Positions 20,242 to 21,784 of a stretch of DNA of 64,000 bases are shown here, piece after piece. This DNA is from Escherichia phage KookSpook. The translations under genes and the position numbers were made by a program. Location of the stretch: sequence record PP925842.1. One strand, written 5' to 3'. The first letter of the stretch is position 1. Each line of letters begins with the position of its first letter. The notes beneath the pieces were generated by a model. The model ran no database searches, was not told the DNA's origin, and saw nothing but the letters and a program-made list of their open reading frames with translations.

Positions 20242-21024
20242 TTGATGAAAATCGAAATTCCAACACAATGTCCCTCTTGTGGTTCTAAACTAGATCTTGT
20301 CAATGGACAATTATTCTGTAGGAATAAGTCCAACTGTCCAGCGCAATCAAGTAAGTTAATTGAGAACTTCTGTACAAAAATGAAGTTAAAGGGCTTTGGC
20401 CCAAAAACTATTGAGAAGCTGGAGCTGACGAAGATTTCAGAACTATTTTACCTAACCGAAGAAGATTTGGTTAGAGCAGTGGGTAGCAAGGTTGCCGCTA
20501 AGTTAATTAGCGAATTAAATACTAAAGTTCGCGGAGACATTGACTTTGGTTCAGTTCTCGGTTCTTTAGGAATTCCTCTAATTGGAGAGGTTGCAGCAAA
20601 GAAATTATCCCAAAATTGCACTAGCTTTCAAGATGTGAGAGCTGATGGCAAAGCTGGAGAAAACTACAAAGCCTGGCTAAATTCCCCACAAGGCAAGGAT
20701 GTAATCGAATTACCGTGGAAATTCTCAACTGGTATTAGAGGCACTAAAGCTGAGACCATTATTACTGATGGTCTAGTAGCCCAACCAAATGGAATCACAG
20801 TATGTATTACCGGATCTTTGCAAGATTTTGCAAACAGAACGGATGCAACAAACTATTTAGAAAGTCTAGGGTATACGGTTAAGAAATCTGTTACCAAAGA
20901 CGTCAAATACCTAATCTGTGAGGATGAATCGAAGCGTTCCTCCTCATCTTATAAGAAAGCCGAAACGAATGGGATAGAAATCCTGTCGATTAAAGAACTA
21001 TTGGAGAAAAATAATAATGTCTAA
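20242..21024 (+). CDS. ligA: NAD-dependent DNA ligase, C-terminal part (Zn finger, HhH, BRCT)
   Basis: 260 aa; starts MKIEIPTQCPSCGS...CRNKSNCPAQ, which is the LigA Zn finger (compare E. coli VVFPTHCPVCGS...CGAQ). C-terminal TGSL...region is BRCT-like. RBS AAGGAAG. Confidence 0.85.
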   Translation: MMKIEIPTQCPSCGSKLDLVNGQLFCRNKSNCPAQSSKLIENFCTKMKLKGFGPKTIEKLELTKISELFYLTEEDLVRAVGSKVAAKLISELNTKVRGDIDFGSVLGSLGIPLIGEVAAKKLSQNCTSFQDVRADGKAGENYKAWLNSPQGKDVIELPWKFSTGIRGTKAETIITDGLVAQPNGITVCITGSLQDFANRTDATNYLESLGYTVKKSVTKDVKYLICEDESKRSSSSYKKAETNGIEILSIKELLEKNNNV

Positions 21025-21784
21025 ACTGAACTGGAACGTAGAAGGTGTAACCGAGTCTCTGAAAGCAAAAGCCACTGCTCTGGGTGTTACTGTAATCTCT
21101 CAAGAACAAGTAGCTGCTATCGCTGCTGAACTGGCTGCTGAAACGGGTAAAGATGTTACTGCACGCTCTGTTGGCTCCAAACTGCGTAAAGAAGGTTTTG
21201 AAGTACAGAAAGCTAACGAAGTACAGAAATCCCCGTGGACTCCTGAGCAGGAAGCTGAACTGGTTGATTTCCTGAACGCTCATGCTGGTCAGTATACTTA
21301 CGCTGAAATTGCTGCTGCTGTAGCTGGTGGTCAATTTGGTGCTAAGCAGGTACAGGGTAAAATTCTGAGTCTGGAAATGACTGCATCTGTTAAGCCGACT
21401 GAAAAAGCTGCCGCTGTTCGCTCCTTCACTCCTGATGAAGAAACCGACTTTGTAAATCAGGTTGTTGCTGGTGCTACTATTGAAGCTATTGCCGAACATT
21501 TCGGTCGTAATATTAAGCAGATTCGTGGTAAAGCTCTTAGCCTGCTGCGTGAAGGCCGTATCGCTGCTATGCCGGTACAGGAAACTTCAAGTGCTAAAAC
21601 TCGTGAAGATCTGCTAGAAGGTTTGGATCTAGCTAACATGACTGTTGCTGAAATCGCTGAGAAAACTGGTAAATCTGAGCGCGGTGCTAAATCTATGCTG
21701 TCTCGTCGTGGTCTGGTTGCTAAAGACTATGATGGTGCCGCTAAGCGTGCTAAACTGGATGCAAAAGCTGCGGCTACTGAATAA
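21017..21784 (+). CDS. Abundant early DNA-binding protein candidate with four internal HTH-like repeats (T5 D5-like)
   Basis: 255 aa, Ala-rich, strongly host-optimised codons (CTG, CGT, GGT, GCT). Four repeats of the type T-x-AEIA...G...K-LSL. Assignment to D5 is by position and size only. Confidence 0.5.
   Translation: MSKLNWNVEGVTESLKAKATALGVTVISQEQVAAIAAELAAETGKDVTARSVGSKLRKEGFEVQKANEVQKSPWTPEQEAELVDFLNAHAGQYTYAEIAAAVAGGQFGAKQVQGKILSLEMTASVKPTEKAAAVRSFTPDEETDFVNQVVAGATIEAIAEHFGRNIKQIRGKALSLLREGRIAAMPVQETSSAKTREDLLEGLDLANMTVAEIAEKTGKSERGAKSMLSRRGLVAKDYDGAAKRAKLDAKAAATE

Follow-up and report, generated by a model that had tools for sequence, protein, structure and literature searches.

A 64,000-nucleotide stretch of the genome of Escherichia phage KookSpook (PP925842.1; hereafter the window) carries, on the + strand at 21017..21784, an open reading frame (ORF) whose product seemed to be built from repeats resembling helix-turn-helix (HTH) units. 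What is this protein, how is it constructed, and what might it do to phage DNA? The ORF (ATG at 21017, TAA at 21782-21784) encodes 255 residues (27.1 kDa, pI 6.3) and is orthologous to gene D5 of phage T5, which is already known and routinely annotated. An earlier note on this DNA had named T5 D5 as a guess from position and had proposed an alignment. The guess was right: aligned with T5 D5 (T5.118, YP_006946.1), the window protein was identical at 250 of 255 residues (98%), without gaps and over the full length, and the two genes occupy the same position. The five substitutions (window residue first) are T25D, E160A, A206V, A224V and T254A. The protein also matched PHROG 323 ('transcriptional regulator, D5-like') over residues 1-253 with an E value of 2e-71. 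A D5 homologue is present in 902 phage records, and the name D5 is used in many of them (hundreds of T5-like phage records). The window belongs to a T5-like phage of the genus Tequintavirus. We consider it likely that D5 is made early and in abundance, that it binds double-stranded DNA, and that its monomer, a string of four HTH units, coats the duplex DNA of the phage.

The annotation of the T5 record describes D5 as DNA-binding, as needed for replication and late transcription, and as having a part in the shutoff of expression; according to the same record, early genes are not shut off in D5 mutants and late proteins are not made. DNA binding by D5 and its roles in replication, early shutoff and late transcription are established for T5 (T5 record note; title of McCorquodale 1979). 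According to a 2026 preprint, D5 triggers the retron-Kva2 defence system, is a 26 kDa monomer by mass photometry and is toxic when expressed alone (PMC13405049). In the same preprint, an AlphaFold3-based model has the D5 HTH bind the multicopy single-stranded DNA (msDNA) of the retron, and just 'a helix-turn-helix motif' is mentioned. Our search of the literature on the D5 protein returned only genome-annotation papers and this preprint, and we found no description of an architecture of four tandem HTHs with variable unit number in the searchable literature.

Four helix-turn-helix units

AlphaFold2, with a 32-sequence alignment of the D5 family as input, modelled the protein at a mean predicted local distance difference test score (pLDDT) of 91.1 and a predicted template modelling score (pTM) of 0.47. 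The model contains four three-helix units, all encoded on the + strand. Unit 1 (residues 5-62; 21029..21202) has helices at 11-22, 29-43 and 49-58, the third of which is ARSVGSKLRK. Unit 2 (residues 73-120; 21233..21376; helices 76-88, 95-101 and 109-118) is Myb/SANT-like and reads WTPEQEAELVDFL...YAEIAAAV...KQVQGKILSL. Unit 3 (residues 137-180; 21425..21556; helices 139-150, 155-162 and 166-178) reads FTPDEETDFVNQV...IEAIAEHFGRNIKQIRGKALSLLREG, and the stretch spanning units 2 and 3 was modelled at a pLDDT of 91.6. In unit 4 (residues 195-235; 21599..21721; MTVAEIAEKTGKSERGAKSMLSRRGL), the first helix is short or poorly formed (205-207) and is followed by helices at 210-217 and 221-231. The 'HTH-like' character claimed in the earlier note is therefore borne out by the structure prediction that it had suggested, as well as by the profile comparisons described below.

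Between the units lie linkers of 10-25 residues (about 59-75, 119-138 and 179-204). The pTM of just 0.47, beside a pLDDT of 91, suggests well-formed domains without fixed mutual packing. A conserved C-terminal helix (residues 240-254, GAAKRAKLDAKAAAT; 21734..21778, + strand) is also predicted. D237 and G240, just ahead of it, are invariant in the family alignment, and protein-protein contact or cooperativity is a candidate role for this helix.

Conservation is concentrated in the third helices of the units. These comprise 44 of 255 residues and hold 14 of the 24 invariant residues of the family alignment (hypergeometric p = 1.6e-6). Each carries a net charge of +2 to +4 in a protein that is about neutral as a whole. 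Judged by these sequence features, the third helices are expected to be the working, DNA-facing surface of D5. T5 mutants that escape retron-Kva2 carry the D5 mutations G53D, W74*, V149I and G232D (PMC13405049), and G53, W74 and G232 lie in invariant or nearly invariant columns of the family alignment.

An alanine-rich helical protein could mimic repeats by composition alone, with no true homologous units, and part of the sequence evidence fits such an artefact. A Smith-Waterman self-alignment of D5 gave a best off-diagonal score of 77 versus 38 +/- 8 for shuffled sequences (z 4.8), but one of 100 shuffles scored 75, so the test is weak taken alone. Hidden Markov models (HMMs) of unit 1 and unit 4 found no other unit above the shuffled controls in the window protein. 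The remaining comparisons argue for homology. Aligned with hhalign, the sub-alignments of units 2 and 3 (R2 and R3; likewise R1 and R4) gave a probability of 96.5% (E 7e-10); R3-R4 gave 83%, R1-R4 57%, R1-R3 37%, and R1-R2 and R2-R4 10%. The R3 HMM found R2 in the window protein at 13.5 bits, versus a maximum of 5.5 over 640 shuffled proteins; no other single-unit HMM match within this protein cleared its control. Scored with an R2/R3 profile, R1 units of orthologues reached 14.8 bits (more than 10 bits in 25 of 165) and R4 units 10.0 bits, with a shuffle maximum of 5.7 (n=975) for both. The four equivalent three-helix units of the AlphaFold2 model, and relatives in which unit 2 is duplicated or in which five or more clearly similar units occur, also speak against an artefact. 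We regard that explanation as largely refuted and highly improbable.

D5 is a protein of four homologous HTH units. From this single sequence, only units 2 and 3 can be recognised as repeats, and it takes orthologues, relatives and fold to tie units 1 and 4 to them. The repeat period is ∼ 57-65 residues, that is, a core of ∼ 45 residues plus a linker. By an iterated unit profile, a partly circular procedure in its later iterations, 171 of the 195 family members have exactly four units and 11 have five. The four repeats of about 45 residues described in the earlier note thus stand as units in the predicted structure and in the orthologue profiles, but internal-repeat detection, which the note had also proposed, was clear for R2-R3 only and left units 1 and 4 at the level of the controls in the single protein. 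Its motif needs the same trimming, since T-x-AEIA fits units 2-4 rather than all four and G-K-x-LSL is confined to units 2 and 3. The grouping into two larger repeats that open with W/F-TP-E/D-E-E did not survive: W-TPEQE and F-TPDEE are the starts of units 2 and 3, which are next to each other. A 2+2 internal duplication was also rejected, as it predicts R1-R3 and R2-R4 to be the best pairs, and their observed probabilities were 37% and 10%.

Unit number varies among relatives of D5. In one of 309 residues (P0121), unit 2 is duplicated. Relatives of 274-294 residues (P0183, P0192 and P0191 among them) have five units, each starting (F/Y/W)-(T/S/N)-x-E, and their genes still have ligase on one side and DnaB/primase/PolA on the other. 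In proteins of 515-692 residues, the D5 profile matched 6-8 distinct stretches, and P0258 contains an apparent array of about ten similar HTH units. P0251 and P0259, and loci L003/L004 (6001-6852), also belong to these relatives of differing unit number.

Relation to known helix-turn-helix families

To which kind of HTH do the units belong? Compared with PDB sequences, the R1 profile found homeodomain-derived chains (1y66, E 3.6e-4), and the best sequences for the R2/R3 profile were c-Myb (E 0.0018), SNAPC4 and B-Myb (E 0.0018-0.02). The unit 4 profile gave only spurious matches in the PDB (an iron-binding protein and L7/L12), and full-length D5 gave nothing among PDB sequences (best E 1.2). 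The matches in Pfam were weak and generic. HTH_23 matched unit 3 (residues 151-184, E 1.3e-4). Myb (PF00249) reached 18.6 bits on residues 71-100 of unit 2, under its gathering threshold of 24.4, and was matched at E <= 0.01 by 9 of the 32 family members. A search of NCBIfam gave no match near any cut-off. As in Myb/SANT domains, each predicted unit folds into three helices, the third of which is the predicted recognition helix. We conclude that they are tri-helical HTHs of homeodomain or Myb/SANT type which would act as those domains do but lie below the membership thresholds of those families. D5 differs from Myb/SANT proteins (c-Myb R1-R3, SNAPC4) in that it is without three regularly spaced tryptophans and has far longer linkers (10-25 residues). 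Moreover, Myb/SANT proteins are sequence-specific eukaryotic factors, whereas D5 is a phage protein made in bulk.

Two further groups resemble D5 in part. The likeness to GcrA of Caulobacter (PDB 5yiu) is confined to the fold of its DNA-binding domain and is no better than that of many other HTH domains; GcrA has one such unit, whereas D5 has four and no recognisable sigma-interacting domain. The GcrA family (PF07750) gave no match in the window protein and was matched by 4 of 32 relatives. The fold matches of D5 included Cbp1 of Sulfolobus, which binds CRISPR repeats (PDB 2lvs), and bipartite HTHs of the Tc3/paired kind. Like D5, they consist of several small HTHs on flexible linkers, which jointly grip extended DNA; unlike D5, they bind specific sequences and comprise only two or three units, and they show no sequence relationship to it.

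Such proteins raise the possibility that D5 acts as a sequence-specific transcription factor, or as a partner of RNA polymerase resembling sigma region 4, and switches promoter use directly and not by coating DNA. Its several HTHs would then read defined early or late promoter sites, as the bipartite paired/Tc3 or R2R3-Myb domains do. Sequence-specific multi-HTH proteins (Myb R2R3, Tc3, POU and Cbp1) are among the fold matches, databases label the family 'transcriptional regulator' or 'transcription factor', and D5 mutants fail in early shutoff and late protein synthesis. In addition, Sigma70_r4_2 (PF08281) matched residues 204-230 of unit 4 at 27.4 bits, above its gathering threshold of 25.7, and was matched by 28 of 32 family members. 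This match, however, spans only positions 23-49 of the 54 in the profile, a 27-residue HTH core, and regions 2 and 3 are missing: Sigma70_r2 gave no match in D5 at E <= 10 in Pfam, and TIGR02937 reached 13.4 bits versus a cut-off of 42.9. Since there is no sigma region 2, D5 is not a sigma factor, and the unit 4 match reflects a generic HTH. Furthermore, all classes of T5 genes are transcribed by the sigma-70 holoenzyme (PMC7472727). Classical work on D5 reportedly found general binding to duplex DNA, which also speaks against this reading. The partial sigma match and the signature of bulk expression described in the next section both disfavour a sequence-specific or RNA polymerase-directed regulator, which we consider rather improbable.

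Signals for expression of D5

How strongly is D5 expressed, and from which promoter? Its codon adaptation index (CAI) of 0.656 ranks first among the 61 non-overlapping window ORFs of at least 80 residues (mean 0.27, standard deviation 0.10, z = 4.0), in agreement with the strong host codon optimisation that had been noted earlier. CTG makes up 79% of the leucine codons in D5 versus 13% elsewhere. The next ranks are held by the major head protein (0.60), SSB (0.55) and the D3 DNA-binding protein (0.46), and the values of the flanking genes are 0.22 (ligB) and 0.25 (D6). In T5-like phages of four other genera (phages of Klebsiella, Pectobacterium, Proteus and Vibrio), the CAI of D5 is higher than those of its ligB and helicase neighbours by a factor of 1.5-3. 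The top codon adaptation in the window is consistent with an abundant D5 protein, and codons better adapted than those of the major capsid protein imply that D5 is made at a stoichiometric and not a regulatory level. The high-CAI ORFs besides D5 lie at window positions 17608-18018, 29193-29966 and 54481-55857; codon bias in this genome marks stoichiometric DNA-coating and structural proteins.

D5 lies downstream of two strong-consensus promoter-like sites found in a consensus scan of the + strand: a sigma-70-type site at 20093..20121 (TTGACA-17-TATACT, 11/12) and an extended -10 site at 20186..20214 (TTGCTA-17-TG-TATAAT, 10/12). Their positions are those of P-K 28b and P-K 28a, respectively, the two promoters that the T5 record places between ligA and ligB. 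The second site is probably the start of a ligB-D5 transcript. The same scan found no + strand promoter-like site between 20242 and 21017, and an internal D5 promoter within ligB was rejected on this ground. The gene ligB, for subunit B of the NAD-dependent DNA ligase (20242..21024, + strand; PHROG 3498, E 7.6e-137; T5 and BB1 annotation), ends in a stop codon that overlaps the D5 ATG (ATGTCTAA, 21017-21024). Position and the T5 annotation together point to co-transcription of D5 with ligB from the tandem early promoters. A Shine-Dalgarno-like GGAG, read from the sequence at 21003..21006 (+ strand), is separated from the D5 ATG by a 10-nt A/T-rich spacer, and a GGAG(A)-A-rich junction also precedes D5 in the orthologues of Klebsiella, Pectobacterium and Vibrio phages. 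Because D5 is without a promoter of its own and shares that of ligB, a high ratio of D5 to ligB protein would have to stem largely from translation, through the GGAG site and codon usage.

The ∼ 200-nt gap between ligA and ligB (window 20043-20241) holds both strong promoter-like sites. In the distant relative L003, the ligase is a single 596-residue gene. Since that ligase is unsplit and the gap carries the promoters, the split of the ligase coincides with the insertion of the promoter region that drives ligB and D5.

On the 3' side, the scan predicted an intrinsic terminator at 21802..21835 (+ strand; AAGGGGAGGGGGC-TAT-GCTCCTTCCCCTT followed by TTTGC). Its hairpin (21802-21830) has 13 pairs, eight of them G-C, and a T-run, and RNAfold gave -32.7 kcal/mol for the whole 82-nt stretch between D5 and D6. 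The terminator is identical in T5 and BB1 and is annotated as such in BB1. Hairpins with other stem sequences, again with a T-run, follow D5 in T5-like phages of Klebsiella, Pectobacterium, Proteus and Vibrio; because these differing hairpins replace it at the same place, its structure and not its sequence is conserved. The claim that D5 is flanked by its own terminator holds for this 3' side but not for the upstream side, where D5 shares the ligB promoters.

The start of D6 is ambiguous (window 21816-21875). The longest ORF begins at ATG 21816, the choice of the T5 record, and this ATG sits within the terminator hairpin. A good AAGGAG site (21860-21865) precedes two alternative in-frame starts, ATG 21867 and TTG 21873, and the start annotated in BB1, by its offset from the D5 start, corresponds to TTG 21873.

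Genomic setting and proposed role of D5

The gene order ligA, ligB, D5, D6 (DnaB-like helicase), primase and DNA polymerase is the same in the window, T5 and BB1. The same neighbourhood was found in phages of Klebsiella, Pectobacterium, Proteus and Vibrio and in metagenomic relatives, and even a distant five-unit relative, which has a T5-type nicking endonuclease gene nearby, retains the slot flanked by ligase and DnaB/primase/PolA. Neighbours, overlap with the ligB stop and the identical downstream terminator region are common to the window and T5. The two differ in that D6 runs directly into the primase gene in the window; the HNH endonuclease gene hegJ, which separates D6 and primase in T5, is absent from this phage, as the two genes overlap (D6 end 23339, primase start 23336; window 23336-23339). 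Over a 3.2-kb stretch around D5, the window shares ∼ 94% identity with more than 400 T5-like phages of Salmonella and Escherichia. The closest database record to window 20200-23400 is MG065692.1 ('Campylobacter phage C13', unannotated; 99.1% identity). Its host label looks doubtful, because the sequence groups with the Tequintavirus phages of Salmonella and E. coli. Partial D5 proteins labelled Enterococcus faecalis (P0020 and P0040; 96-98% identical) look like assembly contamination.

The constant placement of D5 inside the replication module, distant relatives included, would suit a role mainly as a replisome accessory acting on duplex DNA and at T5 nicks alongside the ligase, helicase, primase and polymerase, with the transcription defects of mutants arising indirectly from failed replication. 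The nicking endonuclease gene near D5 homologues in distant relatives and the requirement of D5 for DNA replication (T5 record note) fit this proposal. Gene position is circumstantial evidence only, however, and the proposal is compatible with coating of DNA, from which it differs just in which effect is primary. We hold it to be possible, though on balance doubtful.

How, then, could a DNA-coating D5 act? A ligB-D5 transcript would start at the tandem early promoters and end at the intrinsic terminator just past D5, and D5 would be translated much more strongly than ligB owing to its GGAG site, A-rich spacer and extreme host-type codons. Each HTH unit would set its basic third helix into a major groove, such that one monomer may hold several adjacent major grooves. 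Duplex DNA would be coated by many such monomers and, as judged from the architecture, largely irrespective of sequence. Work of 1979-1983 reportedly found cooperative, duplex-specific and sequence-independent binding by D5, and is also said to have described effects of D5 on the T5 polymerase at nicks. The coat would silence early promoters and allow late transcription. It would also support replication, limit the access of polymerase at nicks and control the access of replication enzymes. The phenotypes of D5 in T5 are established; we infer the causal chain that leads to them from coating.

Several points weigh against this picture. Klimuk et al. 2020 state that the mechanisms of temporal switching in T5 remain unknown, and they implicate another protein, gpT5.026, in switching (PMC7472727); the step from coating to the early-late switch is for these reasons hypothetical. 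Units 1 and 4 have only weak sequence similarity to units 2 and 3, and could have roles other than DNA binding. The whole D5 model gave no significant match among PDB folds (best E 0.057). The linker residues K126, R135 and P186 are invariant in the family alignment, and this conservation indicates that the linkers are more than flexible spacers. Finally, the CAI values of the 61 ORFs were calculated with Sharp-Li weights entered by hand.

D5 is a textbook T5 gene, and its presence here is not news. The four-HTH architecture usefully refines the picture of a known protein but does not amount to a system of a new kind. D5 is nevertheless among the few proteins genetically tied to the early-late switch of T5, the mechanism of which is stated to be unknown (PMC7472727). 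Four separable HTH units with conserved basic third helices offer precise targets for mutagenesis. D5 has also newly been reported as a retron trigger, with escape mutations on family-conserved residues (PMC13405049). The varying number of units in relatives bears on how DNA-coating proteins grow by duplication. More tentatively, D5 may prove to be the founding and tractable member of a phage 'poly-HTH' family of DNA-coating proteins that arose by tandem duplication of a Myb/homeodomain-like unit, of which T5 has four copies, some relatives have five and long arrays have about ten. It would then be a phage chromatin protein whose occupancy of duplex DNA sets the early-late switch and protects the nicked genome, and whose multi-HTH surface is sensed by retron-type defences.

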